The notes: generated from the letters alone by a model not told the origin. 64,000 bases of DNA from Verrucomicrobiota bacterium (GCA_039192515.1 JBCCXA010000010.1:11126-75125), one strand, 5' to 3'; positions 9,951 through 55,413 are shown, counted from the stretch's first letter. Numbers and translations: made by a program.

Positions 9951-9979
9951 CCAAAGAAGTTAACGGAATTGTTTTCACA

Positions 9980-10009
9980 AGAGCCCTACTGAGTAGGGCT
10001 CTTTTTTTT
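9980..10009 (+). terminator. Rho-independent terminator of the porin gene
   Basis: AGAGCCCTAC-tgag-TAGGGCTCT followed by TTTTTTTT. Confidence 0.85.
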
Positions 10010-10125
10010 GCTTATTTGCCATTTGCCAAATAGCTATGAAAATGAGTCAAAACTCGAATCAGGCTAAGCCACCCCTCCAATAGCAGAAACAAAACCACAT
10101 GCCTGTTAATGAGAGCATTACTGAA

Positions 10126-10370
10126 TTAAACCCGGACGATGTCATAAAAGCTTAGCGAGATGCCCAAAAGCTTGAGCCACAAGGAAAAGAGAATCGATTA
10201 AGATATATCCATCCCATGGTCTCAGCGTAGCTTTTACAACAAAGCGAAGGCTTAGATCCAAGCGCGCAGATCACCCATCCAGAAAGAGGTGAGACATAGG
10301 TCTCCATAACGTAATATCTCTAGGAGATTCTATGCTTCTTGGGCCAAGATCTTTAAGTCCCTACCGATGC
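10126..10370. repeat. Intergenic repeat family, copy A (long form)
   Basis: Aligns by eye with 25491..25663 and 25861..26108. Shared blocks are AAACC, GAGAT, AAAAGCTTGAGCCACAAGGAAAAGAGAATCGA, GTCTCAGCGTAGC, CCAGAAAGAGGTGA and CTTTAAG. Confidence 0.7.
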
Positions 10371-10699
10371 TTTAGACTCATCACCTTAGTTGAGAAGAAA
10401 GCTCACTCATAAGATCAAATGGCCCAAGCTAAAAAGACAGGGCTTATCGAGCTGCATGAAAGTGCCAAAATCTTTTGGACACCCGTGGCATGGTATTTGC
10501 TAATAAACAATGTGTTTCTAGAATTTAGAATGAAAGAAATAACTTGGGGCACCAAATTAGCAATGGGTGAAAATAGATAAGCAGCATCTTGGATAGATAA
10601 TGGAATATTTAACAAAGGTAAGTAAAACAGCCAATCATAAGCCGTTCTTATTTGCATAAGAGTATGATTTTTTTGTTCATTCGTCATACTTGAAAGACA

Positions 10700-12058
10700 A
10701 TGACCAGCTCAGACACAAAAAGTATTTATGAGACCTTAAAAAGTAATGGGGTCAAATATTGCCTTGGTGCTTACGTGGATATTCATGGCTGGCCGAAGGG
10801 TAAAATAGTCCCTATAGATCACTTTGAGCACTTTGCTCAGGGCTCCGAACTTTATACGGGCTATGCACTCGATGGTCTTGGGCAGTCACCCAATGATGAC
10901 GAAATAGCCTCTGTACCAGATCTTGACCACATTATTCAGCTACCTTGGAAACCGGAAGTAGCTTGGATGCCAGCTGATAATACATTCCATGAAAAACCAT
11001 ATGAAGTCAGCACTAGGGTAGCATTTAGAAGAATATTGAGAAAAGCTGAGTCGCTAGGTTTTAAGTTCAAGCTAGGCATTGAGTGCGAGGTTTACTTTGT
11101 AAAAAAAGATGACCATGGAAGGCTCATCAACCCAAATCCCAACGATCAATTAACTAAGCCCTGCTATGACGTCCCAGCTTTCTTTGACCAATATGCACTC
11201 TTAGACGAGATCGTCACAGCCATTAACAGCTTAGGCTGGAATGTCTATTCATTTGACCACGAAGATGGCAACTCTCAATTTGAATTTGATTTCGCTTATA
11301 CTGACGGACTTCATATGGCCGATCGCTATATTTTCTTCAGATTCTTAGCCAAACATTATGCTAAAAAAGTTGGACTTATCGCTACGTTCATGCCAAAACC
11401 CTTTGCCGACAAGACTGGCAATGGAGCACACTTCAATATGTCACTTGCTGATATAAACACCGGAGATAACCTTTTTGCCTTAGACAAAAAGGATGATCCC
11501 AAAGGACTTGGACTTTCAACATTGGGCTACTCCTTTATCGCAGGTATCATCCAACATGGTCAAGCACTCTGCGCAGCGTTTGCTCCATCGGTTAATAGCT
11601 ATAAGAGGCTGGTTAGACGCGGAGCAATGTCTTATTACTCATGGGCTCCAGTTTTAAACTCATTTGGAAGCAATAACAGAACAAACTCCATTAGAGTCCC
11701 TATGAATGGCGGACGTTGCGAATCAAGAAATGTGGACTCTTCTTGTAATCCTTACCTTGCGGCAACACTTGCCTTGGCTGCAGGCTTAGAAGGTATTGAA
11801 AAAGGTCTAGACCCTGGTTTACCTCATAATGAAAATCTTTATGAATATTCTGATATGGAGTTATCTGAAAAAGGCATTGAACCCTTGCCCCAAAATTTAA
11901 GTGAAGCTGTAAAAGCGTTTTCTGAAGATCCCTTTGTAGAAGAAACTTTAGGATCGGAGCTGACCAAAGAATTCATCACCTATAAACAACAGGAATGGGA
12001 AGCATATCATCAATCCATCAGTCAATGGGAAGTAGATTTCTACTCTGGCTTATATTGA
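10700..12058 (+). CDS. Glutamine synthetase-family enzyme (GlnA-like; substrate unknown)
   Basis: 452 aa with a GS catalytic-domain pattern: [23 protein letters not shown] and SIRVP...R.E.R. Confidence 0.8.
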
Positions 12059-12098
12059 TTATAGACACCCAAATCAAAACTCGAAAGGAACAAACAAC

Positions 12099-13157
12099 AT
12101 GGACAAAACTAGATTCGTGATACCCTCAATCCTCGCTGCTATGGCCATATTTGTCACTAGCTGCTCAGAGCCACCGCCACCAACTCCTACGGCTAAAGAA
12201 GAAACTACTCCGACTCCAGAATCGGTAGTAGAAAAAGAAGCTCCTGAAACACCAACACTAAAAATCGGTTACAGTGATTGGCCAGGATGGGTAGCTTGGG
12301 AAATTGGCATTGCTAAAAAATGGTTCGAGGAAGAAGGTGTCGACGTTAAATTCGAATGGTACGACTACGTGGCCTCTATGGACGCCTATGTCGCAGGAAA
12401 TGTAGACGCCGTTTGTATGACTAATGGCGATGCTTTAGTCACTGGAGCAACTGGCAAACCCTCTGTAGGCATTATCATAAATGACTTTTCTAATGGTAAT
12501 GATATGATCGTCGCAAAACCGGGTATCGAATCAATAGCCGATTTGAAAGGCAAAAAGGTTGGCGTTGAAGAGGGCTTTGTTTGTCATTTACTCTTATTAA
12601 AAGGTCTAGAAAGTGTAGGCTTATCTGATGCAGATATTACAATAGTTAATACACCTACTAATGAAACCCCCCAAGTGCTAGCATCGGGGGCTGTTGATGC
12701 TATCGGAGCATGGCAACCTAACTCTGGTCAAGCCCTTAAGACCGTAGCTGGATCAAAGCCTGTTTTCACCTCAGCAGATGCGCCAGGTATTATCTATGAC
12801 CTACTCTATGTCTCTCCTGAAAGCCTTGCGGCCCATAAAGCTGAGTGGATGAAGGTTGTTAAAGTTTGGTACCGTATTGTTGATTACCTAAAAGATGAGA
12901 GTAATACTGATGATGCTCTCAAGATTCTTTCCAGCAGAGTCAACCTACCTCCTGAAGAATACGAACCATTCCTAAAAGGAACTTACATTCTCACTTTAGA
13001 CGAGGCATTAGTCAGGTGGCAGGAAGCTGAGGGCCTAGGCTCAATTTATGGCTCCTCTAAGATAGTAGACGATTTCAACGTACGTTTCGAAGTCTACAAA
13101 GAACCTTTAGACACCACTAAGTATCTGGACTCAAGCCTTACGAAAAGCTTGAAATAA
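12099..13157 (+). CDS. ABC transporter substrate-binding lipoprotein (NMT1/SsuA, NitT/TauT type)
   Basis: Signal and lipobox FVTSC, a Pro/Thr linker, and [12 protein letters not shown] typical of NMT1-like binding proteins. Confidence 0.75.
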
Positions 13158-13173
13158 CTATCCTTATCATCTC

Positions 13174-13204
13174 AGCGGCTTAATTTTCTATTAATTAAGC
13201 CGCT
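13174..13204 (+). other. Intercistronic hairpin between binding-protein and permease genes
   Basis: AGCGGCTTAATT-ttctatt-AATTAAGCCGCT forms a 12-bp perfect stem with no U-tract, so it may be an mRNA-stability element. Confidence 0.5.
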
Positions 13205-13222
13205 TGAAAATTAAATATTTGT

Positions 13223-14584
13223 ATGAGCCATGAAGTAGCCAGCAAGCCCTTTAAAGAAGAGTGGTTTACCATTCGCAAAGACTTAAGCCAGGAAAGACAA
13301 ACCTTTTTAACCATCTTCTCATTTCTCATACCACTTTTTATTTGGGCATTACTAAGCTATGTCCCCCCATTTGCATGGCATCCTGATATTAAGCTATCTA
13401 TTTCTGCAGATCAAAAGGGGGTAAAAACTGTTTATTCGGCCGGTGATCGGGTAAGCAAAGAACACTTTCCATACTTTCAGGCTGCCATTCGAAAAGAGAA
13501 TCAAGACGTTCTGGCAGCGGAATCATCTTCGAAGACTATTCCTTCTACTCAGCGTGATAACCTAAAAACTCTTCGACACCTAACTCATATAGCTATTAAG
13601 CAAGGGTGGGTGCTCGAAGCAGAGAAAGAAGATGATGCAGCCATCTACAGGACATGGGGAAAACTTGCTACAGGCAAACTCTACGCTAAAGATTCCGTCA
13701 TCTCGCCAGAAAACCTTCTAGTTATCCAACATAACTGGAAAACACTAAGTCTAGTGAGCACGGAGTACTCTTACAAAGCCTTACCCAAGACACAACTACT
13801 CAAACTGGTCCCCACTGGCAAGAGTTCAAATCCTGTTTACCTCCCTGCACCTCACGAGGTTCTTCAAGCCGGTTTTTATGACTTCACCACGGATCCTGGT
13901 AGAGATAAGCCTTGGATGTACCAAAGATTCTTGCATTCCTTAAGGATCGTTTTCGGAGGCTTTTTATTTTCCTGCCTGCTCGGCATACCTCTTGGCATTC
14001 TTTGTGGAACTTACGACTTCTTCTCTAAGCTAGTCGAACCCTTTATCGATTTCTTCCGCTATATGCCCGCACCAGCTTTTAGTACCCTACTGGTTGCCAT
14101 ATTTCTAGCACATGATGCACCCAAAATTGCACTCGTTTTTGTGGGGACTTTCTTCCAAATGGTCCTTGTTATTTCCAAAACTACTCGTCTTCTTGACCGT
14201 TCCCTGCTTGAAGCTGCCCAGACACTTGGAGCTAAGAATTTTCACTTACTTACAAGAGTTATTATCCCTGGCATCATGCCGAATTTATATAACGATCTGC
14301 GTATTTTATTGGGATGGTCCTGGACATGGCTAGTAATCGCTGAACTCATCGGCGTTAAAACGGGCCTCACTGAGTTTATCGAAACTCAGGGAAGATGGCG
14401 AAATTTCGATCGGGTTTTTCCAGTTATTATTGCTATTGGTATTACAGGATTTTGTACAGACCAAATACTAGCTTGGCTTCGCGTCTACCTTTTCCCTTGG
14501 CATGATACTGCTGAAGGCCAAGGTATGAAGAAAATCTTCAATGTCTTCAACATCTTTAAGAAGACAAAGTCCCAATCCGTATAA
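13223..14584 (+). CDS. ABC transporter permease (NitT/TauT type) with ~190-aa extracytoplasmic insertion
   Basis: 453 aa. TM1 is at residues ~28-46, followed by a long hydrophilic stretch. The canonical permease core ([21 protein letters not shown], the EAA loop) starts from residue ~240. Confidence 0.8.
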
Positions 14585-15492
14585 TGAGCCTTTCAAAAGA
14601 CATCAAAGCATTAAAGCTCCCGGACTATCGCGAACAAACTAGTGAGGTAAAGGAACGTTTCAAACAACTAAAAGAACGCCCAATACAACTCAGGGTTAAA
14701 GAGTTGGGACGAATCTTTGAAAGTAGTAGCGGACCTATTGAAGCACTGAAGGATATTAATTTTGAAATATACCGCCGCGAATTTACTGTTGTGGTTGGAC
14801 CATCTGGATGTGGCAAGTCAACACTCATTCGTATCCTAGCTGGATTAGATTACCCAACTTCTGGCACTGCCTACACAGATGACAACATCGTTCAAGGGCC
14901 CTGCCCAGAAAGAGGCATGGTTTTTCAAGGTTACACACTCTTTCCTTGGCTAACAGTTAAGAAAAATGTGATGTTCGGCCTAGAAATTAAATACGGTAAT
15001 AGCGCAATAGCCGAACCTGAAGCTATGGAGTGGATTGAACTCGTCGGCCTTTCGAAGTTTGCTAATCATTATCCACACCAACTATCTGGCGGCATGAAAC
15101 AGCGAGTTGCTATTGCTAGAGCTTTGGCAAATGAACCTCGCATCTTGATTATGGATGAGCCATTCGGCGCATTAGACGCCCAAACGCGTTGCCAAATGCA
15201 AGCTCATCTGCTGCGTATTTGGCGCGAGGTAGACGTAACAATATTATTTATTACTCATGATTTGGATGAAGCCATATACTTGGCTGACCGCATTATTGTT
15301 CTAGATTCTCACCCAGGACGCATCAAAGAGATTATAGAAGTTGGCATCCCTCGACCTAGGGAACCGGAGCAATTTTTAAGCCCCCTATTCCTTTCCATTA
15401 AAAATCGCCTAGAACACCTTATACACTCCAGGAATATAGAAGAGGAAATCCCTATGGTAAAAATGACTCTGGAAGGAGATGATGTTGAATAA
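14584..15492 (+). CDS. ABC transporter ATP-binding protein
   Basis: Walker [10 protein letters not shown], signature LSGGMKQRV and Walker B ILIMDEPF. The ATG overlaps the permease stop (ATAATG). Confidence 0.9.
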
Positions 15493-15561
15493 TTTTAACA
15501 CTTATTTAAATTTTTTGTTCATACTTTTCAAATAATTCTTCATACTATAAACTGGAAACAT

Positions 15562-16008
15562 ATGAAATCTGATTCATTGACTTTAGCCGGAGGTGTTCAA
15601 AGATTCACCGTAAGTTTACCGCGCAAACTTTTTACTCAGTTTGAGAGAATGATCCATAGCAAAGGCTTTTCAAACAGATCTCAAGCTGTCACAGATTTAG
15701 TAAGTAAAGCAGTAAGCGAGCACCAAACCAAAATCTCCAATACCGTCATGACAGGAGTCTTGACTGTTATTTATGAGCATCGCAAACGAGATCTTCAAAA
15801 CCGCCTTACCCAACTTCAGCACAAATATCTTAAAGAGATTATTTCCATCCAACTTATACATCTTGAAAATGATCATTCCTTGCAAGTACTCCTCATGCAA
15901 GGCCCTGGAAAAAGACTTAAAATGATTTCAGATGAATTTATAACCTGCAAAGGAGTTAAACAAGGCAAGCTAGAACTTAGTGCAACCATTATCCCACAAC
16001 TTTATTAG
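15562..16008 (+). CDS. NikR-family (ribbon-helix-helix + ACT-like) regulator with non-canonical metal site
   Basis: RFTVSLPRKLFTQFERMIHSKGFSNRSQAVTDLV is the RHH domain. The C-domain YEHRKRDL..LQHK..LIHLENDHSLQV aligns to E. coli NikR [27 protein letters not shown]. Confidence 0.7.
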   Translation: MKSDSLTLAGGVQRFTVSLPRKLFTQFERMIHSKGFSNRSQAVTDLVSKAVSEHQTKISNTVMTGVLTVIYEHRKRDLQNRLTQLQHKYLKEIISIQLIHLENDHSLQVLLMQGPGKRLKMISDEFITCKGVKQGKLELSATIIPQLY

Positions 16009-16019
16009 CATCTAATCAT

Positions 16020-16742
16020 ATGAAAATCCCTGAAGATAAAATCCGATTCTCATTAAAAATTCAAGCAGGAGAAAACTGGTCACATGTCTTAAAAAGAGGA
16101 ACAACACTTCAACTACATGACATAGAAGGAGGTGCAAATATTTCTATGATGCTCTACAACTTTGAAATACTAAGTGAGCGTTACAATATGCCAGACACGC
16201 TTAAGGCCCAACATACAGCTTATCTTACCAAAGGGCATTGCCTTTATTCTGATATGGGCCGTATTCTTGCTTCTATTACAGAAGACTCGTGCGGTTGGCA
16301 TGATACGATCTCAGGCTACTCAACTCCTGAAATTATTGAAAAAAAGTATGGCACTGGGACTTTTCAAGAACTCCGTAATAAATTTCACCGAAATGCCTAT
16401 CACGGATTTCTTCAAGAATTAGCAAAATATGACATGGGGCCGAGAGACCTAATACCCTGTGTTAATTTTTTTAGCAAAGTCACCAATGATTTGCATGGTA
16501 ATCTTAGTTATGTTCCCAATCATTCCAAATCCGGTAGTATTGTCCATCTTCGTTCCGAAATGAACACACTTATCATCTTGAATACATGCCCCCATCCTTT
16601 GGATACTAGCCCAACATATAACGCAAAAAAAATCGAAGCAACTATCTGGACTTCGCCCCTGATTGAATCAGATGATGCATGCCGAACCTCGTGCCCGGAA
16701 AACGAAAGAGGTTTTATCAATACTGAACGATATTTTCTGTAA
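16020..16742 (+). CDS. DUF1989 protein (urea-carboxylase-associated family; CgdA/B-like)
   Basis: 240 aa and a paralogue of the next ORF. The paired position directly upstream of the biotin carboxylase is the hallmark of this family. Confidence 0.7.
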   Translation: MKIPEDKIRFSLKIQAGENWSHVLKRGTTLQLHDIEGGANISMMLYNFEILSERYNMPDTLKAQHTAYLTKGHCLYSDMGRILASITEDSCGWHDTISGYSTPEIIEKKYGTGTFQELRNKFHRNAYHGFLQELAKYDMGPRDLIPCVNFFSKVTNDLHGNLSYVPNHSKSGSIVHLRSEMNTLIILNTCPHPLDTSPTYNAKKIEATIWTSPLIESDDACRTSCPENERGFINTERYFL

Positions 16743-16761
16743 CCCTAAATTAAAATAAACT

Positions 16762-17403
16762 ATGACTACAAAAGAAAGCCAACTTAAGCCTGCCTTAGCC
16801 ATCTACGATGAGACCATTCTAGCTGGAGACGGTTGGATGCATGAAATTAAGCAAGGCCAAACCCTACGCATCGAAGATGTTGAAGGCAATCAAGCAGTAG
16901 ACACGCTTTTTTATAATGCCCAAGACTATGAAGACCGCTATAGCGCAGTAGATACCATAAGAGAACAAGGAAACATTTATCTCACCACTGGAACGAAACT
17001 AATATCAACTAAAAGAAACACTTTACTGACTATCGTCGCTGACACTTGCGGACGCCATGATACTCTCGGCGGCGCATGCTCTACGGAGAGTAATACTGTT
17101 CGTTATTCTTTAGAGAAACACTATATGCATGCATGCCGCGATACTTTTACAAGATATGGAGCTTTATGGCCGGAACCTTTCAGCAAAAAAGATATCACCA
17201 ACAATATCAATTTCTTCATGAATGTTCCAGTCACCCCAGAAGGCAAGCTGACTTTCGAAGATGGCATTTCTGCGCCAGGACTATATGTTGAGCTCCTTGC
17301 TGAATTGGATACGGTATGTCTTATTTCCAACTGCCCACAGCTAAACAATCCTTGCAACGCTTATAATCCCACTCCTGTTCGTGTGCTTATTTGGAATCCT
17401 TAG
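16762..17403 (+). CDS. DUF1989 protein (urea-carboxylase-associated family; CgdA/B-like)
   Basis: 213 aa. [21 protein letters not shown] and [12 protein letters not shown] resemble the upstream paralogue (GTTLQLHDIEGGANISMMLYN, CGWHDTISG). Confidence 0.7.
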
Positions 17404-17411
17404 CCAAAGCT

Positions 17412-20400
17412 ATGTTTCAAAAAGTCCTCATAGCCAATCGTGGAGCCATAGCTTACCGTATTCAAAGGACCCTCAAAAGAATGGGGGTGCATAGTGTTGC
17501 AGTCTATTCAGAGGCTGACACTCATTCACGTCACACACTCAACGCAGACGAGGCTATTTTAATCGGTGAGGCTCAGCCTACAGAAAGTTATCTTAATATA
17601 CACAAAATCATTGAAGCAGCCAAATCTTCTGGGGCACAAGCCATTCACCCTGGATATGGTTTTCTTAGTGAGAATACAGATTTTGTTAAAGCTTGCGAAC
17701 GAGCTAACATTACTTTCATTGGCCCAACAGCGAAGCAAATCGAAGCTTTTGGGCTTAAACATTCAGCTAGAGAGCTTGCTAAAAAGTGTAACGCTCCACT
17801 ATGCCCTGGCACGGAGCTATTATTAGACATAGATGAAGCCAAAAGCGCAGCAAAACAAATAGGCTACCCCATCATGATTAAGAGCACTGCTGGCGGTGGT
17901 GGCATTGGTATGCAGATTGCGTATAACGAAAAAGAGCTTTGCTCAGCATTCACATCTGTTAAGCGTCTCGGGGAACATAATTTTAAAAATGCTGGCATCT
18001 TCATTGAGAAATACATCGAAAGGGCCAGGCATATCGAGGTACAAATCTTTGGAGATGGTCAAGGGACAGTGATCGCTCTAGGAGACAGGGATTGCACTAT
18101 CCAGCGACGAAACCAAAAAGTCATTGAAGAGGCGCCCGCACCTAACCTAGATGATCCTATTCGAATAGAACTACATCAAACAGCTATAGCCTTAGGCAAG
18201 TCGGTAAATTACCAGAATGCAGGGACGGTCGAATTTATCTACGACTGTGAAACAAATTCCTTCTACTTCCTTGAAGTAAATACTCGCTTGCAAGTTGAGC
18301 ATGGCGTTACCGAAGAAGTCTTTAGCATTGATTTGGTCGAATGGATGCTGCTGCAAGCTTCAGGAGAATTTAGGGATCTAATGGCTTTCAATCTGAAGCC
18401 TCAAGGTCATGCCATGCAAGCGCGCATTTATGCAGAGAACCCTCAGAAAAATTTCCAGCCGAGCTCAGGCATTCTTACACATGTTACATTTCCAGATAAT
18501 GCCCGATGCGAAACCCACATAGAAAGCGGATCATCCATCCCACCTTATTATGACCCCATGATTGCTAAAGTAATTGTTAGGGGTGATGACAGAGATCAAG
18601 CTTTAAAGAAATTAAGCCAATCCTTAGATGAGGCTTACTTATATGGAATTGAAACGAATTTGGATTATGTCAAACGGATACTAGAGACTGATGAATTCCA
18701 TGATGTAAGGATAACGACAAGATTTTTAGACTCACTAACCACTCAAAGTAATACTATAGACGTTCTTTCCCCGGGAACTGTTAGTTTAGTCGTTTCATAC
18801 CCTGGAAGGCTAGGGTTTTGGCACGTCGGAGTTCCTCCATCAGGACCCATGGATAATCTAGCTTTTCGCTTGGGTAATGCCGCACTCGGAAACGATGCTG
18901 GCGCTGCAGGTTTAGAACTTACTGCATCAGGTGCTAAATTAAAATTCAACTGTGATAAGCAAATTATCTTAACGGGTGCTCCTATGCACTCACAGGTCAA
19001 TAACCTACCTGTCGATTACTGGAAAGTCATTCACATTAAAAGCGGAGATGTACTTAAAGTAGGTAACACTGTTGAAGATGGTCTAAGGTCCTATATTCTT
19101 TTTCAAGGGGGCCTTAAAATCCCTGACTACTTGGGCAGTAAAACAACTTTTCGCTTAGGTAAGTTTGGCGGGCATTGCGGGAGGTCACTGCAGACTGGTG
19201 ACGTCTTACATCTAAATCAAACGAGTGCTCAGAAAATTAAAGAAATCCCAAGCGATTTTATTCCATCCTATAACAAGCGCTGGGAAATAGGTGTTCTCTA
19301 TGGTCCACATGGAGCACCTGATTTCTTTACAGAGAAAGATATAGAAACATTTTTCAAAACCGATTGGAAAGTTCATTACAACTCAGATAGAACAGGTATC
19401 CGCTTGACAGGCCCTAAGCCACAATGGGCCAGGAAAGATGGAGGTGAAGCGGGTCTACACCCCTCGAATATCCATGATAATGCCTATGCCATTGGAGCCA
19501 TCGATTTTACAGGGGATATGCCAATCATTCTAGGACAGGATGGTCCAAGCCTAGGAGGGTTTGTCTGCCCAGCAACAGTTGTCCAAGCAGAAATTTGGAA
19601 AATGGGACAACTAAAGCCAGGGGATACCATACGCTTCATACGCTTGCAATATGAACAGTCCCTGGTTGCCAAGAAAAAACAAGATCTGGAGATTAAGAAC
19701 CTTGAAAGAACTGAAGCTGTTACGTCTAAAATTTCATCTAGCCCTGACTTGGATCAAGCTATCCTTCATCAAACGACTTCCACAGATGAAATCAATCAAA
19801 CCGTTTACCGTGGCGCTGGCGACTCTTATGTGTTAGTTGAATATGGCCCCATTAGACTGAATCTTAACTCAAGATTCCGAGCACATGCTCTCATGCTTTG
19901 GCTACAATCTAATGAAATTAGTGGCATTATCGACCTGACGCCGGGAATACGCTCTCTACAGATTCATTTTGATAATTCCGTTATCACTCTTGACCAGCTA
20001 ATGGAACACCTTCTTCGAGCCGAGCGACAATTAAAATCCATCGAAGACATGGTAGTGCCCACACGAATTATCCATCTACCCTTATCTTGGAATGACCCTT
20101 CTACTCAACTCGCAATTGAAAAATATAATCAAAGCGTGCGCGCTGATGCACCATGGTGTCCAAGCAATATTGAATTCATTCGCCGAATTAATGGGCTCGA
20201 TTCTATCCAAGAAGTGCAACGTATTTTGTTTGAAGCCAGTTATCTAGTTATGGGACTGGGCGATGTTTATTTGGGAGCTCCCGTCGCCACACCTATTGAT
20301 CCAAGACACCGCTTGGTCACAACCAAATATAATCCTGCTAGAACATGGACTCCTGAAAACGCCGTGGGCATAGGTGGCGCCTACCTTTGTGTCTATGGTA

Positions 20401-21017
20401 TGGAAGGACCTGGCGGCTATCAGTTTGTAGGACGCACCGTGCAAATGTGGAATAACTACCACCAAACAAACCATTTTACAGCCAGCAAGCCCTGGCTCCT
20501 CAACTTTTTTGATCAGATCCGTTTTTATCCCGTAGAGGCTGATGATCTTTTAAAAATCCGTGATGACTTTTTACATGGCAAATATGAACTGAAAATAGAA
20601 CATGCTCAATTTAGTCTTAGTGATTACAATCAATTCCTATCAGATAATCATGCAGACATACGAGTATTTAAAAATAAACAAAAACAAGCCTTTGAAGACG
20701 AACGAGAACGCTGGATAGAGAATGGTCAAGCTACCTTTGAAGGCAGCGAGCATGACTTTGAGGAAGCAAACTCTCAACATATCAATCTACTAGATAATGA
20801 AGAGGCTGTTGAATCTGTTATATCAGGAAGTGTTTGGAAAATTGAAGTATCTGAAGGTCAAGAAATAGATGAGGGAGATGTCTTAGTTGTGATTGAAGCC
20901 ATGAAAATGGAAACTTCCATCCTTGCGCAAACTAGCGGAAAGATTGGCCAAATTCTTTGCCAAGCTGGCAACCCAGTTTCATCAGGTCAAACTCTTTTAA
21001 CCATCCTTACCGACTAG
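17412..21017 (+). CDS. Urea carboxylase-type biotin enzyme (urea or guanidine carboxylase)
   Basis: Contains a biotin carboxylase module (KVLIANRGAIA, EVNTRLQVEH), KipA/KipI-like carboxyltransferase domains and a C-terminal biotinyl motif EAMKME. ATG 17412 is preferred over the track's TTG at 17391, which overlaps the upstream gene. Confidence 0.9.
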   Translation: MFQKVLIANRGAIAYRIQRTLKRMGVHSVAVYSEADTHSRHTLNADEAILIGEAQPTESYLNIHKIIEAAKSSGAQAIHPGYGFLSENTDFVKACERANITFIGPTAKQIEAFGLKHSARELAKKCNAPLCPGTELLLDIDEAKSAAKQIGYPIMIKSTAGGGGIGMQIAYNEKELCSAFTSVKRLGEHNFKNAGIFIEKYIERARHIEVQIFGDGQGTVIALGDRDCTIQRRNQKVIEEAPAPNLDDPIRIELHQTAIALGKSVNYQNAGTVEFIYDCETNSFYFLEVNTRLQVEHGVTEEVFSIDLVEWMLLQASGEFRDLMAFNLKPQGHAMQARIYAENPQKNFQPSSGILTHVTFPDNARCETHIESGSSIPPYYDPMIAKVIVRGDDRDQALKKLSQSLDEAYLYGIETNLDYVKRILETDEFHDVRITTRFLDSLTTQSNTIDVLSPGTVSLVVSYPGRLGFWHVGVPPSGPMDNLAFRLGNAALGNDAGAAGLELTASGAKLKFNCDKQIILTGAPMHSQVNNLPVDYWKVIHIKSGDVLKVGNTVEDGLRSYILFQGGLKIPDYLGSKTTFRLGKFGGHCGRSLQTGDVLHLNQTSAQKIKEIPSDFIPSYNKRWEIGVLYGPHGAPDFFTEKDIETFFKTDWKVHYNSDRTGIRLTGPKPQWARKDGGEAGLHPSNIHDNAYAIGAIDFTGDMPIILGQDGPSLGGFVCPATVVQAEIWKMGQLKPGDTIRFIRLQYEQSLVAKKKQDLEIKNLERTEAVTSKISSSPDLDQAILHQTTSTDEINQTVYRGAGDSYVLVEYGPIRLNLNSRFRAHALMLWLQSNEISGIIDLTPGIRSLQIHFDNSVITLDQLMEHLLRAERQLKSIEDMVVPTRIIHLPLSWNDPSTQLAIEKYNQSVRADAPWCPSNIEFIRRINGLDSIQEVQRILFEASYLVMGLGDVYLGAPVATPIDPRHRLVTTKYNPARTWTPENAVGIGGAYLCVYGMEGPGGYQFVGRTVQMWNNYHQTNHFTASKPWLLNFFDQIRFYPVEADDLLKIRDDFLHGKYELKIEHAQFSLSDYNQFLSDNHADIRVFKNKQKQAFEDERERWIENGQATFEGSEHDFEEANSQHINLLDNEEAVESVISGSVWKIEVSEGQEIDEGDVLVVIEAMKMETSILAQTSGKIGQILCQAGNPVSSGQTLLTILTD

Positions 21018-21022
21018 CTAGC

Positions 21023-22825
21023 ATGAAAGATCTTAGCCTAGATATCGACAGTCTACGTCGAGCTTACCAACAAAAGTGCATCACGCCTCGTGAAGTAGTA
21101 GAAATGATTCACAAGCGAATGGACGGGCAAGAATGGCGTAATGTCTGGATCACTAAATTAACTCTCGAGCAACTCGAGCCTTATTTTAGATCCCTACCCT
21201 TTAGCAAAATCGATTCTCTTCCACTCTATGGCATTCCATTCGCCATTAAGGATAACATTGATCTCGTAGACATTCCTACTACCGCAGCATGTCCAGAATA
21301 TGCCTACATACCGACTGAGTCTGCGTACGTCGTTCAGCAACTCATCCATGCTGGAGCTATTCCTATTGGCAAAACAAATCTAGATCAATTTGCAACTGGA
21401 CTAGTGGGCACACGCTCTCCTTATGGATCTTGCCCCAATAGTTTCAATCCGCAATATATCTCTGGAGGGTCTAGCTCCGGTTCAGCAATTGCTGTGGCTC
21501 TTGGTTGGGCATCTTTTTCCTTAGGGACTGATACAGCTGGCTCCGGAAGAGTTCCAGCCTCCTTCAATAATCTTGTTGGCTTAAAGCCTACTCGAGGTGT
21601 TTTAAGCACTAAGGGTGTAGTGCCTGCATGTCGAACACTAGACTGTGTCTCTATCTTTGCTCTCCATGTTGGCGATGCTAAAAAAGTTTTCAATATCTCC
21701 TCAATATATAACCAAAAGGATTCTTATTCTCGGCCATTCCACGCTCGTAAAAACAGGTCTGTGAACCAACTCAAGATCGGCATACCCATAAAAAAGCAAA
21801 TCTTCAGTGAAGAGTTCCCTGAAACATATAGACTATTGAATGAAAATACTAGCCTTTTAAAAAACTTAGGTTATGAAATCCTACAAGTTGACATTTCCCC
21901 TATGCTTCAAGCAGCTAAGCTCTTGTATGAAGGACCATGGTTAGCAGAACGCTATGCCGCTATAAAGGAATTCATTGAAAAACAGCCCGAAAGCCTTTTC
22001 CCCACAACCAGAGAAATTATTACTTGTGGGAAAAAGGCTTCAGCTGTAGAGGCCTTTACAGCTTCTTACAGACTGCAAGACCTCATCCGAGAATCAGAAA
22101 AAATTTGGGAATCGATTGATGTTCTGTTAACTCCAACCACACAGACCATCTACACTTTAAAGGAAATTGATTCTGATCCAATCCGACTCAATTCTCTATT
22201 AGGGACATTCACCAATTTTATGAACTTGCTTGATTTCAGCGCCATCACGGTACCTGCTGGCCGCTATCGAGAGCAGTTACCCGACCTTCCTTTTGGCATT
22301 ACTTGTGTTGCCCCAAGCTTTTCCGATCTTGATCTTATAAGATTTGCAACGCCTTTCCATCAAGCTCAAAAATGTTCCATGGGTGCTACAGAACACCCGG
22401 TCCCCCAGGATGTACCAGATGATAAAGCTCCACCTACTCATGTTGCCCTAGCCGTATGCGGAGCTCATCTCTCTGGTTTACCTCTCAACCACCAATTAAC
22501 AGAACGTCAGGCGAAGCTTCTCAAATGCTGTAAAACAGCACCATCCTATCAATTTTTTGCTTTAGAAGGTGGCCCTCCCTATCGACCAGGTCTTATTCGA
22601 TCTAATCAAGGTGATGCAATTGAGGTTGAAATTTGGGAAATGCCCCTAAAACATTTTGGATCTTTTGTTGCGAATATCCCTGAGCCTCTTGGCATCGGCA
22701 AAGTAGAGCTTGAAAATGGTTCGTGGGTTTCTGGGTTTATTTGCGAAGATTATGCAATTGAAAAAGCTGTAGACATTACATCGTTTGGGAGCTGGAGAAA
22801 CTATATGTCCTCTTTGAATCAGTAA
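21023..22825 (+). CDS. Allophanate hydrolase (amidase-signature family)
   Basis: FAIKDNID, GGSSSGSA and GTDTAGSGR form the amidase signature, and a C-terminal AtzF-like domain is present. ATG 21023 is used; the track start at 20957 overlaps the carboxylase. Confidence 0.85.
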   Translation: MKDLSLDIDSLRRAYQQKCITPREVVEMIHKRMDGQEWRNVWITKLTLEQLEPYFRSLPFSKIDSLPLYGIPFAIKDNIDLVDIPTTAACPEYAYIPTESAYVVQQLIHAGAIPIGKTNLDQFATGLVGTRSPYGSCPNSFNPQYISGGSSSGSAIAVALGWASFSLGTDTAGSGRVPASFNNLVGLKPTRGVLSTKGVVPACRTLDCVSIFALHVGDAKKVFNISSIYNQKDSYSRPFHARKNRSVNQLKIGIPIKKQIFSEEFPETYRLLNENTSLLKNLGYEILQVDISPMLQAAKLLYEGPWLAERYAAIKEFIEKQPESLFPTTREIITCGKKASAVEAFTASYRLQDLIRESEKIWESIDVLLTPTTQTIYTLKEIDSDPIRLNSLLGTFTNFMNLLDFSAITVPAGRYREQLPDLPFGITCVAPSFSDLDLIRFATPFHQAQKCSMGATEHPVPQDVPDDKAPPTHVALAVCGAHLSGLPLNHQLTERQAKLLKCCKTAPSYQFFALEGGPPYRPGLIRSNQGDAIEVEIWEMPLKHFGSFVANIPEPLGIGKVELENGSWVSGFICEDYAIEKAVDITSFGSWRNYMSSLNQ

Positions 22826-22847
22826 TTATGAACCTAAAGAAAAGAAC

Positions 22848-23234
22848 TCAAGACTCGCTATAAATAATTCCCATAGATTTGGTATAGGTTTCAATGCCTG
22901 TAAAATGAGCCTCCTTATCTCCCTGCAAGTAGCGAGTAGCTAACTCTTTCTCTATCTTCTTCAATCGCTTGATATGCTTCCTAGCTACCTCACCTTCAAG
23001 TGTCCCAAGCTGCTTACGATTAGCGCTTACTTTTTTACTAGACTGAGTCGTCCTGTAATCTTCAGTTAGTGAGGTATATTTTTTCTGCAAACGCAACAAT
23101 TCTGTGGTGCGCAAATAGCTAAGCGAATAATCTTCAACCTCTGTCTTAAGCGATCGGCTACTATCCAAACTCTGACATGCTTGCATGAAAAAGGTCACCG
23201 CAAAACAGCAAGAAAGAAAACTCACAAGCCTCAT
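22848..23234 (-). CDS. Hypothetical secreted/lipoprotein
   Basis: 128 aa with a signal-like N-terminus MRLVSFLSCCFAVTFFMQACQS. No family was recognised. Confidence 0.5.
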   Translation of the reverse strand: MRLVSFLSCCFAVTFFMQACQSLDSSRSLKTEVEDYSLSYLRTTELLRLQKKYTSLTEDYRTTQSSKKVSANRKQLGTLEGEVARKHIKRLKKIEKELATRYLQGDKEAHFTGIETYTKSMGIIYSES

Positions 23235-23301
23235 AAAAACAGTGAAGCTTCGCGAATGTTTTGATCAAGACAGAACTTCGTTAATAAAGTTTTGGAAATA
23301 A

Positions 23302-24270
23302 TTACTTTTTTCGCGTAAGTCGCCAATTGAAGGCATTTACGCCTCTAATTGAACGACGTTGACTTTCTCTCTTAACCAAAGTGTCATCCACCCCTATCGT
23401 CTTAGTCTTATCATCATCAGTAGTATTGGATGATAGTGCACTGCTTCGCTTTGGCGCAGGAAGCGGTTTTACTATTTTAGGGACTTCTTGGAAAGGCGCC
23501 GTGCCTCTCGTGCTCTTATCTATGTTCTGGGGTACTGGTGCAGCTGATGTTAAAGCTGAAAGACTCTTGTTCTTAATGGTGGCATTTGCACGAAGCAATA
23601 CACTACCTACATAGATAGCATCTCCTGGAACCAATAAAGCATCCTCAACCTTTTCCTCGCGAAAATAGATACCATTGGTAGAGCCTAGGTCTAATACCTG
23701 TATAGTATTTTTAGTTACAGATACAGAGCAATGTCTCCGTGAAATTGAATGATGGGGAATAACTAATTCTGCAAACTCAGGCGTAGCACCAATAATCACA
23801 GTCCCTTTTTTTAACTCAAAAATATAACCTTTTAGCTCTGTATTCTCTGCTTCTAGGTATAGGGTATAGCGCCTAAAATCAGGCAATAAAACCGTTTGCT
23901 TTTTTTTGTCTACTCCATCAGACAAATCATCCCCTGTCATCTGCTGGATATGGCTTAACAACAACGCATTAGCAGGAAATTTTTCTGCTAACTTCCCAAA
24001 CTCAAACAACACCTCTCTAGTTGTAACTTGACAGCTTACCCTATCAGACACTTCTCCCAAACGCCATTCAACCTTTGATTTTTCCCAGGCTAGCATTCCT
24101 AACACGGCTACTCGATGGCTCAGAGACCTCGTAAAGGCACGGGTCACCAAGCCTTTGGTTAGATAAATTTCACCGATATCTGGCACGTCTAAACGCTCTA
24201 CGTATAGACACCCCGTCTCCGCTTTAGGCCCAGCAAGTTGTAGGTTTTTTATCAGATTAGAGTTAGCCAT
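23302..24270 (-). CDS. FHA-domain protein
   Basis: IGATPEFAELVIPHHSISRRHCSV..LDLGSTNGIYF..GDAIYVG is an FHA core in the C-terminal half of a 322-aa protein. Confidence 0.75.
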   Translation of the reverse strand: MANSNLIKNLQLAGPKAETGCLYVERLDVPDIGEIYLTKGLVTRAFTRSLSHRVAVLGMLAWEKSKVEWRLGEVSDRVSCQVTTREVLFEFGKLAEKFPANALLLSHIQQMTGDDLSDGVDKKKQTVLLPDFRRYTLYLEAENTELKGYIFELKKGTVIIGATPEFAELVIPHHSISRRHCSVSVTKNTIQVLDLGSTNGIYFREEKVEDALLVPGDAIYVGSVLLRANATIKNKSLSALTSAAPVPQNIDKSTRGTAPFQEVPKIVKPLPAPKRSSALSSNTTDDDKTKTIGVDDTLVKRESQRRSIRGVNAFNWRLTRKK

Positions 24271-24435
24271 AGTCTCCTATCCTCCCCCTCGCAGCTTTCC
24301 CGTATTTTGTTAATATAAGCTACAATTGACATTAGATCGAGCTTTTTAAGTTCTATCTAAAAAAGTTTAGAGCTTATCAAGGCAGTATTTTGCAGAGGCT
24401 ATGCAAAATAACACAAATATGGCGTAATACCAAAG

Positions 24436-25404
24436 TCAACGTTTAATACTGGCCATGACAAGTGCTTCAGGTCCCTCAGCTTGCATAATCAAATTCCCAC
24501 GCCTGTCTAACTGTAGATCATAACCGCCAACACTAATTTTGCCACGCAGTAACCCATAGAGCTCTTGTGAACCAATTTTTATACGATTTTGGCCTCTCTC
24601 CAAAAACAGCTCATCTTGCGCTTTTGTAATAGTGCTTTCAACGCCCCTGGAGACAAAAGAATAAGAGGCACCTGACTCTAGTTGATCTTTAAGGGCTGGA
24701 TATAACAACATACCAAAATGGAACATCTTGGGTTTCCACCATTTCGCTGTCCAAACCTTATTATTTTCATCAAAATCTACATCAGCTTTCCTCAAAAAAC
24801 CCTTTTGCTTGGCAATATCTTCAACTGGAAAATTGCCAGCCTTATTGTTTAAACTCTTAACATCTACAGGCTGTGCTTGCTCGATTACCGGTAATGCTTG
24901 CGCTTCTTTGGCAGTTGTTTCAGCTCGGGCCGGCACCTCTTCACTCCAAGAAACAAGAACTGGCCGCTGGGGATCTTGAACTTTATTCGCAATAAGTGAA
25001 ACCTCTCTATCTAGCTTTGCAGGAAGAGCTTTCAAAGACTTTTCTTGCATGGCACTAGCTTTTACCTCATCAGCAGTTGTATAAGCTCTACTTTGGGTTT
25101 CAGATTGAACTAGCGGCTTAGACTCCATGGGCTTATTGAGAGATTTCGGCTCCTTAGACTCTGGTAAAGTTTTTGCAAAGTGAGGCCCTGGCTTTGGGAG
25201 AGCATCTGTTACTGCATAGCCTTGAACATCACTCACCCCTCTAGCTAAGAAATACTCCTGCGCCAATTTCTTCTCCTGGGCTAAAATATCAGCCCAAGGG
25301 GAATGATGAGGTAATAATTTAGCCTCGCTAGTAGGGATTTGATCTCGAGTTTGCCCAGCTAACCTAAAATAAGATGTAAGTACAGATGGCTTCACACCTT
25401 CCAT
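24436..25404 (-). CDS. Hypothetical protein (Pro/Lys/Glu-rich N-half, globular C-half)
   Basis: 322-aa ORF co-directional with the FHA gene. No family was recognised. Confidence 0.5.
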   Translation of the reverse strand: MEGVKPSVLTSYFRLAGQTRDQIPTSEAKLLPHHSPWADILAQEKKLAQEYFLARGVSDVQGYAVTDALPKPGPHFAKTLPESKEPKSLNKPMESKPLVQSETQSRAYTTADEVKASAMQEKSLKALPAKLDREVSLIANKVQDPQRPVLVSWSEEVPARAETTAKEAQALPVIEQAQPVDVKSLNNKAGNFPVEDIAKQKGFLRKADVDFDENNKVWTAKWWKPKMFHFGMLLYPALKDQLESGASYSFVSRGVESTITKAQDELFLERGQNRIKIGSQELYGLLRGKISVGGYDLQLDRRGNLIMQAEGPEALVMASIKR

Positions 25405-25490
25405 AATCTAAATTTACGCACATCCTGTGCCAATATTGATAGATCTCATTGCTCTCCTATGATCAGGCTTATAAAAGAGCTCACTTAGCT

Positions 25491-25663
25491 CTAACCTAGA
25501 TGATGTCATAGAAGTTGAACGAGATACGTAAAAGCTTGAGCCACAGGAAAAAGAGAGTCGACGGAGATGTAACAGAAAGGTGACATCTCTTGGGGACTCT
25601 ATGTTTCTTCGTGACAAGATCTTGCACAGATTCTTAAGTGTCTATGGCATCATTCTGGGTTTA
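25491..25663. repeat. Intergenic repeat family, copy B (short form, ~75-nt internal deletion)
   Basis: It shares CTAACCTAGATGATGTCATAGAAG..GAGAT..AAAAGCTTGAGCCACAGGAAAAAGAGAGTCGAC..AGAAAGGTGA..AGATCTTGCACAGATTCTTAAG with copies A and C. Confidence 0.7.
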
Positions 25664-25860
25664 ACGAGGCAAAAAAATCCTTAGCCTCGGAAACTCTTTC
25701 TCATAGCTAGAGAAATAGCCTGATTTACCCCCTTTTGTACACAGAAGCCTATATTCCCAGAGCACCTAATTTAGAAAAGTGAGAAGAAATTTGTTACCTA
25801 TTTTATTGATCTCAATCGCTTTTTTGGCCAGGCAATCACTTCTTGCCATGAATGCTCCTG

Positions 25861-26108
25861 TTAAACCTAGACTGTGCAATAGAAATTGAAAGAGATGCAT
25901 AAAAGCTTGAGTCAGAAGGAATAGAGAGTCGACCAAGATCTATTCATTGTATCGTCTGAGCGTAGCTATCAAGCATGTAGAGCGCCAATCCAGATAGAGG
26001 TGAAACCTGAGCCTCAATAAGGTGATAGCTCTAAGGAGAGAATTATGTTCATTAGAGGGACGGGATCTTACACAGATCTTTAAGACTCTACGGCGCCATT
26101 CGGGTTTC
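25861..26108. repeat. Intergenic repeat family, copy C (long form)
   Basis: Contains TTAAACCTAGA..GAGATGCATAAAAGCTTGAGTCAGAAGGAATAGAGAGTCGAC..GTCTGAGCGTAGC..CCAGATAGAGGTGA..GGATCTTACACAGATCTTTAAG..GGGTTT. It has the same orientation as copy B and starts ~200 bp downstream of copy B's end. Confidence 0.7.
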
Positions 26109-26172
26109 ATCTAGCAACTCTAATGCAAATAAGCGGCAAATACCGACTAAGAGCTGCTTTAAAGTTACGGAA

Positions 26173-26508: not shown

Positions 26509-26649
26509 ATAACGAGTGTCTCTTTCCTATAACACGGTACTATTATATTATTCGACTCGATTTCACCCGAAATAAGCTTATCTCAAATAATTTTCTTAGC
26601 TTGCTAGCGGCGGAAAGAATTGCTTTAATCACCGTTCGTTTTTGTGCCT

Positions 26650-26734
26650 GGAAGGGTGGCAGAGTGGACGATTGCACCGGTCTTGAAAACCGGCGTGCCG
26701 CGAGGTACCGTGGGTTCGAATCCCACCCCTTCCG
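26650..26734 (+). tRNA. tRNA-Ser (anticodon UGA)
   Basis: Folded by hand. The acceptor is GGAAGGG/CCCTTCC with discriminator G. The anticodon arm is CCGGT-CTTGAAA-ACCGG, there is a long variable arm, and the T arm is GTGGG-TTCGAAT-CCCAC. No CCA is encoded. Confidence 0.95.
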
Positions 26735-26956
26735 AAATTGTCAGAAGCAAAACGTTGGCTCTCACCAAAAATTGGGCACACTCGAATGTTAATCATATTA
26801 GTCAGTAATATCGCGTCCTATGTACTCATCTCTAGGCCATGATTGACGAAATAGCGTTTATTCAACAATATCCTAGAAACCATCAGATGTGGATACAGCA
26901 ATTCATAGATTCTAAAAAATCTTCAAACCTCTCATCTGAGTATATTTTTTCTGTTT

Positions 26957-27994
26957 ATGAATAGCGAGCATATCATATGGGTCAGTATTTTCTTGTGCCT
27001 CTCGCAAAGCGCTATCTTTTCAGGACTGAATATTGGTCTCTTTTCCCTTAGCAAACTAAGCCTAGAGGCTCGAGCGCAGAGCGGAAGTAAGGAAGCCCGC
27101 AAAATCCTAAGCCTCCGCAGCAACTCAAACAAACTGCTGGCTACCATTTTATGGGGAAATGTCTCAGCTAATTGTCTACTGACTATGTTAAGTGACTCTG
27201 TGTTAGCCGGTGTCGCAGCTTTTTGCTTCTCTACTATCGCAATTACTATTATTGGAGAAATTTTGCCCCAAGCATATTTTTCTAGATACGCACTCAAGAT
27301 TGGTTACATTTTAGCGCCACTTATCAGCTTTTATACCATCCTTCTCTACCCAATAGTGAAATTGACCACGCTATTTTTGGATCGCCTCCTAGGCCAGGAA
27401 GGCCCCGTTTACTTTAGAGAAAAAGACCTCCATTTCATATTGAAGAGGCACACAGAAGAAGAAGGTACAGACATCGGCGCTGTCGAAGGCATAGGTGCCA
27501 TGAATTTCTTAAAACTTGATGACATCCCGGTTTCCAAGGAGGGAGAAGTGCTTCATTCTAAAAGTATCATTTCCTTACCCACGAAAAAGGGAATCGTCTT
27601 TTTTCCCGAGATAACCATGGAGTTCGATGACCCTTTCCTAAAGCAAGTCAATGCCAGTGGCATGCCTTGGGTGGTCATTACCGATTACAAAAATGACCCT
27701 AAACTTGTATTAGATGCCGATGGCCTCATGCGAGATATCATTTCACAGAAACAAAGAAGACCCTTTTTCCACTGCCATAAGCCTATTGTCGTTACAGACT
27801 CAGCCAAAACATTGGAGGACATCATAAGCAAACTTCACGTCCATAAGACACATGCCGAGGATGATGTTATCGATCACGATATTATCCTATATTGGGGGAA
27901 GACAGAAAAAAGAATCATTACCGGGGCAGATATCCTGGGAAGGCTACTCAGAGGTATCGTCCAAGGAAAAACAATTAGTCCTAAGGGCAACTAA
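26957..27994 (+). CDS. DUF21/CNNM-family membrane protein (TlyC/CorC-like)
   Basis: N-terminal TM domain with GEILPQAYFSRYALKIG, typical of DUF21, plus a cytoplasmic C-terminal region. Confidence 0.65.
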   Translation: MNSEHIIWVSIFLCLSQSAIFSGLNIGLFSLSKLSLEARAQSGSKEARKILSLRSNSNKLLATILWGNVSANCLLTMLSDSVLAGVAAFCFSTIAITIIGEILPQAYFSRYALKIGYILAPLISFYTILLYPIVKLTTLFLDRLLGQEGPVYFREKDLHFILKRHTEEEGTDIGAVEGIGAMNFLKLDDIPVSKEGEVLHSKSIISLPTKKGIVFFPEITMEFDDPFLKQVNASGMPWVVITDYKNDPKLVLDADGLMRDIISQKQRRPFFHCHKPIVVTDSAKTLEDIISKLHVHKTHAEDDVIDHDIILYWGKTEKRIITGADILGRLLRGIVQGKTISPKGN

Positions 27995-28024: not shown

Positions 28025-28408
28025 CTAAGCGGCCATTACTAAACCCATATCCGATACCTTAGCTAATACTAACTTTAATTCCCTATATCCAAAGGGCTTC
28101 TGCATAAAATCAATAATTCCAAGACTTTCTTTCTGAAAACAATTTAAATGTAAAGGTGAACCTGACATAATTACTGCAGGAATCGAACAATGTAAGTTTC
28201 TTACGCATTCTATAACTTCTAAACCATTTTCTCCTGGCATATGGTAATCCGTTAAGAAGCAATCATACTCTTTATCCGAAATTACCTCTAAAACATCCTG
28301 AGCAGAAGCCACGGATGTCGCATCCCAGCCGGTAGCATTTGCCACCACTGCAATAGTCTTTCCCAAAGTTTGATCGTCGTCTAGTATTAATAATTTTTTC
28401 CTACTCAT
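28025..28408 (-). CDS. Single-domain response regulator (CheY-like receiver)
   Basis: 127 aa with KLLILDDD, a phospho-acceptor context CFLTDYHMPGENG and the MQKPF pocket. Confidence 0.85.
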   Translation of the reverse strand: MSRKKLLILDDDQTLGKTIAVVANATGWDATSVASAQDVLEVISDKEYDCFLTDYHMPGENGLEVIECVRNLHCSIPAVIMSGSPLHLNCFQKESLGIIDFMQKPFGYRELKLVLAKVSDMGLVMAA

Positions 28409-49366: not shown

Positions 49367-50323
49367 TTAAAAAGAATTAGCCTGCGCTAGAGGTTCCCTT
49401 CCTTCTAGCACTGCTATCAAATTTTTTACTGCCATAGTTGCTTGCCGCTCGACGCTCTCCATGGTCCTGGACCCAATGTGAGGAGTAATTACAGCATTTT
49501 CCACTTTTAAAAGTGGATGATCTGTCGGAGGTGGCTCCGCATCTAAGACATCTGCGCCATAGCCTAGAAGCTTTCCCGAGTTGAGGGCCTCCACCATCGC
49601 ACTTGTTTCCACTATTTCACCACGCGCACAATTAAGCACGACCGAGCCATCTTTGAAGAGTTTAAGCCTATTTGAATTGATCATACCACGCGTCTCCTCT
49701 GTAAGCTTTGTATGAATACTCAAAATATCAGAGCGCTTGATTAATTCATCTATGCTTCCCATTTTTTCAATTCCTTGTTTTTGTGTAAATTCTTCGGGCC
49801 AATACGCACCAAAACCCAAGACTTTCATACCAAACGCTTTGGCTCGAATTGCCACTTCCCTTCCTATGCGTCCAAGACCTACTAAACCCATGGTTTTCCC
49901 CATCACCTCATGGCCAGTCATACGCTTCCATCTGCCTTCACTTACATAATTCGCTTCTGTTACAATTTTCCGGTAAACCGCAAAAAGTAACCCGAAGGTG
50001 TGTTCCGCTACAGTCGTATGATTAACACCTGGACAAAAGGTAACTGGCACCTTCAAGTCTGTGGCCGCATCCACATCAACTTTATCAAGACCTATGCCGT
50101 ACTTGGAAATCAACTTAATTTTAGGGAGACTTTTTTCCAGAACACTGCGAGTAATAGCATCATCACCACAGAGAAACGCATCATAGTCCCCTGCAAGTTC
50201 TAACATTTTTTCCTCCGACAAAGGCCCCCGTTCTCGGTGAATCTCATATCCTTTAGATTCTAATAATTCGTGATGGGGACCAGGAGTATCTTGAAAAGAT
50301 GTCGTAGTTAATAAAATTTTCAT
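49367..50323 (-). CDS. D-isomer-specific 2-hydroxyacid dehydrogenase
   Basis: [13 protein letters not shown] (NAD fold), NCARGEIV and ITPHIGS (catalytic His). Confidence 0.85.
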
Positions 50324-50506
50324 CTCTATCTAAACCCTTCTTGATTCAACTTCTATGAGATCACCCGAGTTCAATACATCTCAAGCACCCCTTAGTCGCT
50401 TAGGTGGAATAGAACAAACCTCACAATCACACACCTGTTAGATTTTTCTTTAAAGTGCCATAGGTGTTGAAAGCTGTAAAGGATTTAATAGATTCCCCGC
50501 AAGGGT

Positions 50507-54896: not shown

Positions 54897-54952
54897 ACCG
54901 AACAAGACAGTGGTGGCAACGGCTAAGGCCGTGCCACACTTCGAAGTTCGCT
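54897..54952 (+). repeat. attC site 5 (short family)
   Basis: R'' CCGAAC ends at 54903. Arms are GTGgTGGCAaCGGC (54910-54923) / GCCGTGCCACAC (54928-54939) with two bulged bases. R' GTTCGCT is at 54946-54952. Confidence 0.85.
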
Positions 54953-55330: not shown

Positions 55331-55340
55331 ATGTAATAAA

Positions 55341-55406: not shown

Positions 55407-55413
55407 AGAATAA

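Follow-up and report, generated by a model that had tools for sequence, protein, structure and literature searches.

A small palindromic intergenic repeat, probably MITE-like, in a lineage of Verrucomicrobiota

REPINs are intergenic repeats that form hairpins, with stems maintained through compensatory change, and ERIC, a repeat of ~127 bp confined to Enterobacteriaceae and their relatives, occurs as short and long variants produced by insertions at fixed internal positions. Bacterial miniature inverted-repeat transposable elements (MITEs) are usually shorter than 200 bp and reach up to ~400 bp, have terminal inverted repeats and target duplications, carry no transposase, form long stem-loops and differ in location between related strains (PMC3184786). 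Here we describe a repeat of comparable kind in a 64,000-nucleotide stretch of DNA from a Verrucomicrobiota bacterium (GCA_039192515.1 JBCCXA010000010.1:11126-75125), hereafter the window, in which positions are counted from its first letter. An initial annotation of the window had proposed that three intergenic copies of an element (A, B and C) were either a structured noncoding RNA (ncRNA) or a MITE. We conclude that the copies probably belong to a small, lineage-restricted, non-autonomous, MITE-like palindromic intergenic repeat of a Verrucomicrobiota lineage, because the element has terminal inverted repeats, TTAA-like flanks, near-identical unlinked copies and an empty B site in a relative, decayed copies at gene truncations and variable orientation. 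The second half of the earlier proposal is therefore the one retained; for the first, compensatory pairs and an excess of G·U pairs offer indirect support.

Pairwise blastn established the homology of the three window copies, with A and C 75% identical over 107 nt (E 5e-15), A and B 81% identical over 69 nt (E 2e-13) and B and C 78% identical over 79 nt (E 2e-13), and with second blocks of similarity towards their 3′ ends. The 21-nt core AAAAGCTTGAGYCASARGRAA occurs three times where 0.03 occurrences are expected, and the family was the top hit of an unsupervised repeat search of the window. These three results bear out the presence of all three copies in the same (+) orientation. Copy B (25491..25664, +; covariance-model score 147 bits) is an intact short form that folds as a rod hairpin, its core at 25495-25660, CCTAGATG...CATTCTGGGT, being flanked by CTAA (25491-25494) and TTAA (25661-25664). 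Copy C (25861..26109, +), detected by blastn and by the covariance model (58 bits, E ~1e-11), is a long form in which TTAA at 25861-25864 is followed by the core at 25865-26105 and then by TTCA; its apical insert measures ~79 nt, and both arms are present with an eroded stem. Copy A, a long form of ~270 nt (10126..10395, +), was detected by blastn and, at 10125-10395, by the covariance model (31.6 bits, E ~1e-5). Its location between the porin gene and the GS-like gene was correctly described; its 3′ end had been drawn too short and probably reaches ~10395, where the 3′ arm is decayed. The 5′ arm and the core AAAAGCTTGAG of this copy are intact, the apical insert spans ~105 nt and the 3′ arm is decayed or partly deleted. 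The segment that B had been said to lack relative to A and C is indeed absent from it and corresponds to an insert of ~80-105 nt in the apical loop. No reading frame is conserved across the copies, again as first described: no open reading frame (ORF) of 60 aa or more runs across a copy on the strand of the element, and neither the ORF at 25414-25617 (-), which overlaps B, nor the short ORFs beside the copies have a Pfam match.

The only close relative reached was the ENA metagenome assembly ERZ26696514, in which the syntenic contigs L028 and L044 encode orthologous proteins 61-80% identical to those of the window. Proteins encoded in the window match at 100% those of an NCBI metagenome-assembled genome with locus tags AAGA18. 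The window sequence is also present in the Logan assembly of SRR22824305, and the window contig was extended by ~8.8 kb leftward, which gave copy G, and by ~2.9 kb rightward, where there was no copy. The relative contains copies D (L028:9004-9179, +), E (L028:5186-5361, -) and F (L044:6506-6681, +), and G (L045:5044-5316), a diverged fourth copy of the long form, lies 3.7 kb to the left of the window. D, E and F occupy unlinked sites and have 93-97% identity among themselves, and their similarity begins and ends sharply at TTAAACCC...GGGTTTAA. Against the window copies, by contrast, the sole part that aligns is a 5′ block of ~50 nt at ~70-77% identity. Because D, E and F are nearly identical while standing this far from the window copies, they point to recent copying within the relative's lineage. 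Small size and lack of a transposase gene, both characteristic of MITEs, are seen throughout (175-270 nt).

The basic unit of ~166-175 bp is bounded by a terminal inverted repeat of ~20 bp, (TTAA)ACCCGRATGATG...CATCATTCGGGT(TTAA), a feature that the initial annotation had suggested looking for. A conserved subterminal motif occurs in inverted arrangement about 40 nt in from either end, AAAAGCTTGAG in the 5′ arm facing CAAGATCTTG in the 3′ arm. The interior is almost wholly self-complementary, so that either strand, the + strand best, folds as one rod hairpin. In D, the terminal inverted repeat comprises AACCCGAATGATGCGTTAG and CTAATGCATCATTCGGGTT (19 pairs), and the 19-bp end stem of AACCCGAAUGAUGCGUUAG and CUAAUGCAUCAUUCGGGUU has equivalents in B, E, F and G and, in eroded form, in C. 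The whole 175-nt unit of D forms a single rod at -83.8 kcal/mol (z -11.7); B has a minimum free energy of -62.4 kcal/mol (z -5.48, with none of 200 shuffles as good), and the short forms range from -62 to -84 kcal/mol. The long forms A, C and G carry their 79-105 extra nucleotides in the apical loop, and this insert showed no conserved fold (consensus energy -4.3 kcal/mol). The rod also reassigns the smaller structures suggested earlier. The pairing of AAACC with GGGTTT holds as the outer end of the ~20-bp closing stem, the whole short form being one rod hairpin and not only paired at its tips. The small palindrome AATCGATT / GTCGAC, described as covarying, is not a local hairpin; the distal 3′ arm supplies the pairing partner of its left half (AGAAUC/GAUUCU in A and AGAGUC/GACUCU in B, as read from the sequences). 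Nor is a local CTTG...CAAG hairpin kept in the relative's copies, as CUUG pairs with the 3′ CAAG of CAAGATCTTG.

Occupancy differs between the two genomes. One of the six sites is common to both, the interval between the porin gene and the GS-like operon, which holds A in the window and D in the relative; those of E, F, B and C are filled in one genome only. At the site of E the window has an 85-bp spacer without the element, and the intergenic sequence there is too diverged to align, so no empty site could be defined at the nucleotide level. F adjoins two paralogous VWA genes, one on either side, where the window has a single gene. In L044, the position of B is taken by a 214-bp spacer and that of C by an intact gene for a cNMP-binding protein. 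Sequence on either side of B can be aligned to L044 (...CTCACTTAGCTCTAA–B–TTAACGAGGCAAAAAAATCC in the window and ...CTACTTGATACTTAATCAAGGTAAAAAAATCC in L044); the site is empty in L044, which amounts to an insertion, or a precise excision, at a single TTAA. Flanking repeats are TTAAA/TTAAA at D, TTTAA/TTTAA at E and CTAA/TTAA at B. The orientation of the copies has no fixed relation to the neighbouring genes.

Two of the window copies, A and C, stand at the break points of truncated genes. Between A and the GS-like gene lies a decayed 3′ remnant of a creatininase gene (10396..10699, +), recognized by alignment to L028:9660-10021. In the remnant, CGTGGCATGGTATTTGCTAAT and the junction with the GS-like gene are preserved at a distance matching that region, and an intact creatininase gene directly precedes the GS-like gene in L028, L049, L050 and L051. 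Because the remnant abuts A and has CGTGGCATGGTATTTGCTAAT at the matching distance from the start of the GS-like gene, the 3′ arm of A and the 5′ two-thirds of the creatininase gene appear to have been lost in one deletion. A 90-aa ORF at 10415-10687 (-), without a Pfam match, is probably spurious. Upstream of C, ~28 codons from the N terminus of the cNMP-binding protein gene remain (25775..25858, +; tblastn 54% over 28 aa, E 0.003, and DNA alignment). The gene is intact in the relative (L044:8773-9786), and the window remnant stops 2 nt before C. The spacer upstream of the gene, including GGCAAAAAAATCC...GGAAACTCTTTC, is conserved between both genomes, and on the right side of the deletion at C homology resumes only within a 111-aa gene, so that no right edge was found. 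The gaps around the copies had been called gene-free; they do lie outside intact genes, but the remnants at 10396-10699 and 25775-25858 occupy part of them. A good sigma-70-like site, TTGATA-16-TATGAT (10/12), is present at 25436-25463 (+), 27 nt upstream of B. This may be the promoter left orphaned by truncation of the cNMP-binding gene, and transcription of B and C could start from it.

The proposed course of events is as follows. A transposase encoded elsewhere in the genome would recognize both ends of the element, and perhaps the subterminal motif. The element would insert at TTAA-like, AT-rich sites and duplicate the target, and the inserted copies would then decay and act as break points for adjacent deletions.

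We regard it as very improbable that there is no element at all and that the copies are leftovers of a duplicated gene, of a known insertion sequence (IS) or prophage end, or of integron attC sites. What suggests this is that A and C adjoin gene remnants and that attC-like repeats occur in the same window at 54-61 kb. The gene remnants, however, do not extend into the repeat and show no relation to each other. Creatininase and cNMP-binding protein sequences, tried as candidates for a gene remnant at the same place in the relative, gave no tblastn match inside the copies, and a distant-mode blastn search of plasmid and phage records returned no similarity; none of the origins that the initial annotation had named as fatal to its proposal thus came to light. 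The core sites of attC read RYYYAAC ... GTTRRRY, and an attC of 57-141 nt lies at the 3′ end of each cassette ORF. The ends of the element read TTAAACC ... GGGTTTAAC and fit GTTRRRY in D only, by chance; the unit of 175-270 nt is longer than attC, is not linked to cassettes and is not placed behind cassette ORFs.

Searches of wider collections returned chance matches only. A DNA-pattern scan of genome contigs, in a collection evidently without the window's own genome, yielded 26 single matches in unrelated taxa, which blastn and the covariance model identified as chance. Metagenome contigs gave no match with the first pattern and 12 with the second, all by chance, and viral contigs gave none with either pattern. 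The initial annotation had matched the element to no known RNA family, and Rfam 15 gave none: the gathering threshold returned tRNA-Ser only and E-value scans of A, B, C and D gave chance hits alone (E at least 0.1), outside or unrelated to the element.

Several observations weigh against a MITE-like element. We infer its mobility from a comparison of two genomes, and the tally of seven copies and one possible remnant covers ~107 kb of these genomes. That same ~107 kb contained no transposase, no solo terminal repeat and no full-length IS with matching ends. The flanking motifs TTAA and TTWAA are themselves palindromic, which makes a target duplication inseparable from a longer inverted repeat, and the middle base of the flanks in five copies favours a direct repeat in three and an inverted one in two (F and C). 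An 11-mer invariant in six copies is better conserved than the termini. In the consensus rod of 63 pairs built from the alignment of B, D, E and F, 11 internal pairs are changed on both sides between B and D/E/F and still pair; shuffles gave 2.9 such pairs, none of 500 reached 11, and slid controls gave 1-4. This covariation comes from a comparison of essentially two lineages. At the pairs of the + strand model, G·U outnumbers A·C by 5:0 in D, 7:3 in B, 11:5 in C and 8:2 in G, with 5:6 in A (~36:16 in total), as counted on an alignment that had been fitted to this strand. If a selfish double-stranded DNA repeat were decaying neutrally, neither this G·U excess nor the internal compensatory changes would be expected.

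The same features are what a functional structured RNA would account for, either a ~175-nt rod-shaped small RNA or a cis element on the + strand that sets the stability or processing of a neighbouring transcript; we consider it unlikely. Selection on the hairpin, on the internal loop of invariant AAAAGCUUGAG in the 5′ arm opposite conserved CAAGAUCUUG in the 3′ arm and on AAAGGUGA in the apical loop would fit the rod and its compensated pairs. In B, D and E, folding favours the + strand over the - strand by 13-15 kcal/mol, the 11-mer is invariant, G·U exceeds A·C, and both A and D lie upstream of the same nitrogen-scavenging operon. Yet the folds of A and C are no more stable than those of shuffles (z -0.62 and -0.56, respectively), A being without a 3′ arm, and no site resembling a promoter or terminator consistently accompanies the copies, the only clear terminator being that of the porin gene (9979-10003). 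Orientation varies, Rfam offers no match and five of the six sites are not common to both genomes. In the terminal stems, co-evolving transposase sites would give the same covariation as an RNA, with two lineages to compare, and the G·U count inherits the strand to which the alignment was fitted. Also rejected was a role as leader or riboswitch of the nitrogen-scavenging operon: only A and D are so placed, the other five copies lying elsewhere (B, C, E, F and G), and a conserved leader or riboswitch is excluded because the more distant L029-L031 and L049-L051 carry this operon without the element.

A mobile element that moves as single-stranded DNA (ssDNA), of the REPIN/RAYT or IS200/IS605 kind, in which an HUH-type enzyme recognizes one folded strand and not inverted repeats in double-stranded form, would likewise explain a hairpin kept along its full length by compensatory change, a strand-specific excess of G·U (G·T) and copies that are short and intergenic. 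We judge it quite improbable. IS200/IS605-type elements have dissimilar ends and insert beside a particular short sequence that they do not duplicate, whereas the ends here are symmetric and both are flanked by TTAA-like repeats. The sequence at hand holds no RAYT or TnpA(Y1) gene, and a REP or REPIN (repetitive extragenic palindrome) was rejected as a candidate since the ends have no GTAG/CGTC head and no RAYT-like ORF was found among the scanned proteins. REPs are described as G+C-rich units of 20-40 bp with a GTAG or CGTC tag, the mark of the large REP superfamilies (PMC3733652); the element, at 175 nt and 41% G+C, is far longer and carries no such tag. There is a small chance, in a wider formulation, that the rod hairpin would itself be the functional unit, as a ~175-nt strand-specific RNA or an ssDNA intermediate, kept by compensatory substitution, together with the internal and apical loops, and spread either as a mobile RNA-gene family or through a hairpin-recognizing enzyme of a kind not yet described in Verrucomicrobiota.

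As a MITE-like element, the repeat would be of the kind represented by ERIC, Correia and Chunjie. The short and long forms (~175 bp and ~250-270 bp) resemble the short and long variants of ERIC and exceed its ~127 bp, the two being compared by description, with no known resemblance in sequence. Both are imperfect palindromes over their full length. ERIC/IRU sequences bear terminal inverted repeats and target duplications, with TA at both termini (PMC3184786). Correia/CREE of Neisseria, RUP of Streptococcus pneumoniae and Nezha of Anabaena/Nostoc share with it the size class of ~100-400 bp, the lack of a transposase, terminal inverted repeats and AT-rich flanks (PMC3184786). As in MITEs generally, the copies are mostly intergenic, form a long stem-loop, differ in occupancy and accompany truncated genes and plastic regions (PMC3184786); unlike them, the element has no sequence similarity in the collections searched, and conservation is strongest in the subterminal 11-mer, above that of the termini. 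In Geobacter uraniireducens, of a different phylum, the Chunjie repeats are also MITE-like, with very stable predicted hairpins of about -98 to -130 kcal/mol (PMC3184786), against -62 to -84 kcal/mol for the intact copies of the element. A limited literature search found no MITE family from Verrucomicrobiota in titles or abstracts.

A possible remnant, H, of ~45 nt lies at 50333..50378 (-). The match is weak (18/19 by blastn to B, E 0.011; nhmmer E 0.13) and consists of the 5′-arm-like GATCTCATAGAAGTTGAA and the end GGGTTTAG, directly upstream of the ATG of a serA-like gene at 49367-50323 (-). In an orthologue search for this gene the best match was in an unrelated genome, without the element. 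In addition, a 14-nt exact match to the 5′ end of B (CTAACCTAGATGAT) occurs at 18142-18155 inside the urea carboxylase gene; it is probably due to chance, as a rough estimate predicts ~0.3 matches of this kind for the full set of 14-mers in the copies.

The operon downstream of A (10700-22825) comprises the type III GS-like gene, an NMT1-type ABC transporter (three genes), a NikR-like gene, two DUF1989 genes, urea carboxylase and allophanate hydrolase, a gene set typical of nitrogen scavenging from urea, guanidine or creatinine. Rfam found no guanidine (ykkC) or other riboswitch in it. The tRNA-Ser(UGA) gene (window 26649-26735; L044:8105-8191) is conserved in both genomes, and its neighbours differ. 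Only the window has a CNNM gene (26957-27994) and an ORF at 28025-28408 near it; the relative has the duplicated VWA-domain gene, with F between the paralogues, and a GFO_IDH_MocA gene. The region beside this tRNA gene is plastic.

Between 51500 and 61100 (+), the window contains ~15 small ORFs on the same strand, parted by short attC-like repeats such as CTAAC...AACCTAATAGC...GCTATAGGTT...GTTAGGT. Pairs of these repeats lie, for example, at 60576-60656 and 60946-61026, 55335-55410 and 57089-57164, 58035-58090 and 60102-60157, and 54899-54944 and 59114-59159. Most of the ORFs have no Pfam match; the clear matches are to Imm8/CdiI immunity domains and DUF5677, and no integron integrase is found in the window. 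The region may represent an array of cassettes in the chromosome or a cluster of attC sites without integrase.

Together, these results account for three supposedly gene-free gaps and for two gene losses, those of creatininase and the cNMP-binding protein, in this metagenome-assembled genome, and they mark a sequence able to break metagenome assemblies or to mislead ncRNA screens. A new question would arise only if selection were found to act on the hairpin as RNA or ssDNA. If the MITE-like reading is true, the cognate IS would have ends that read TTAAACCCGGATGATG. The element adds a repeat family of known kind from Verrucomicrobiota, not a new RNA gene, and provides a clear example of a MITE-like repeat at deletion break points.

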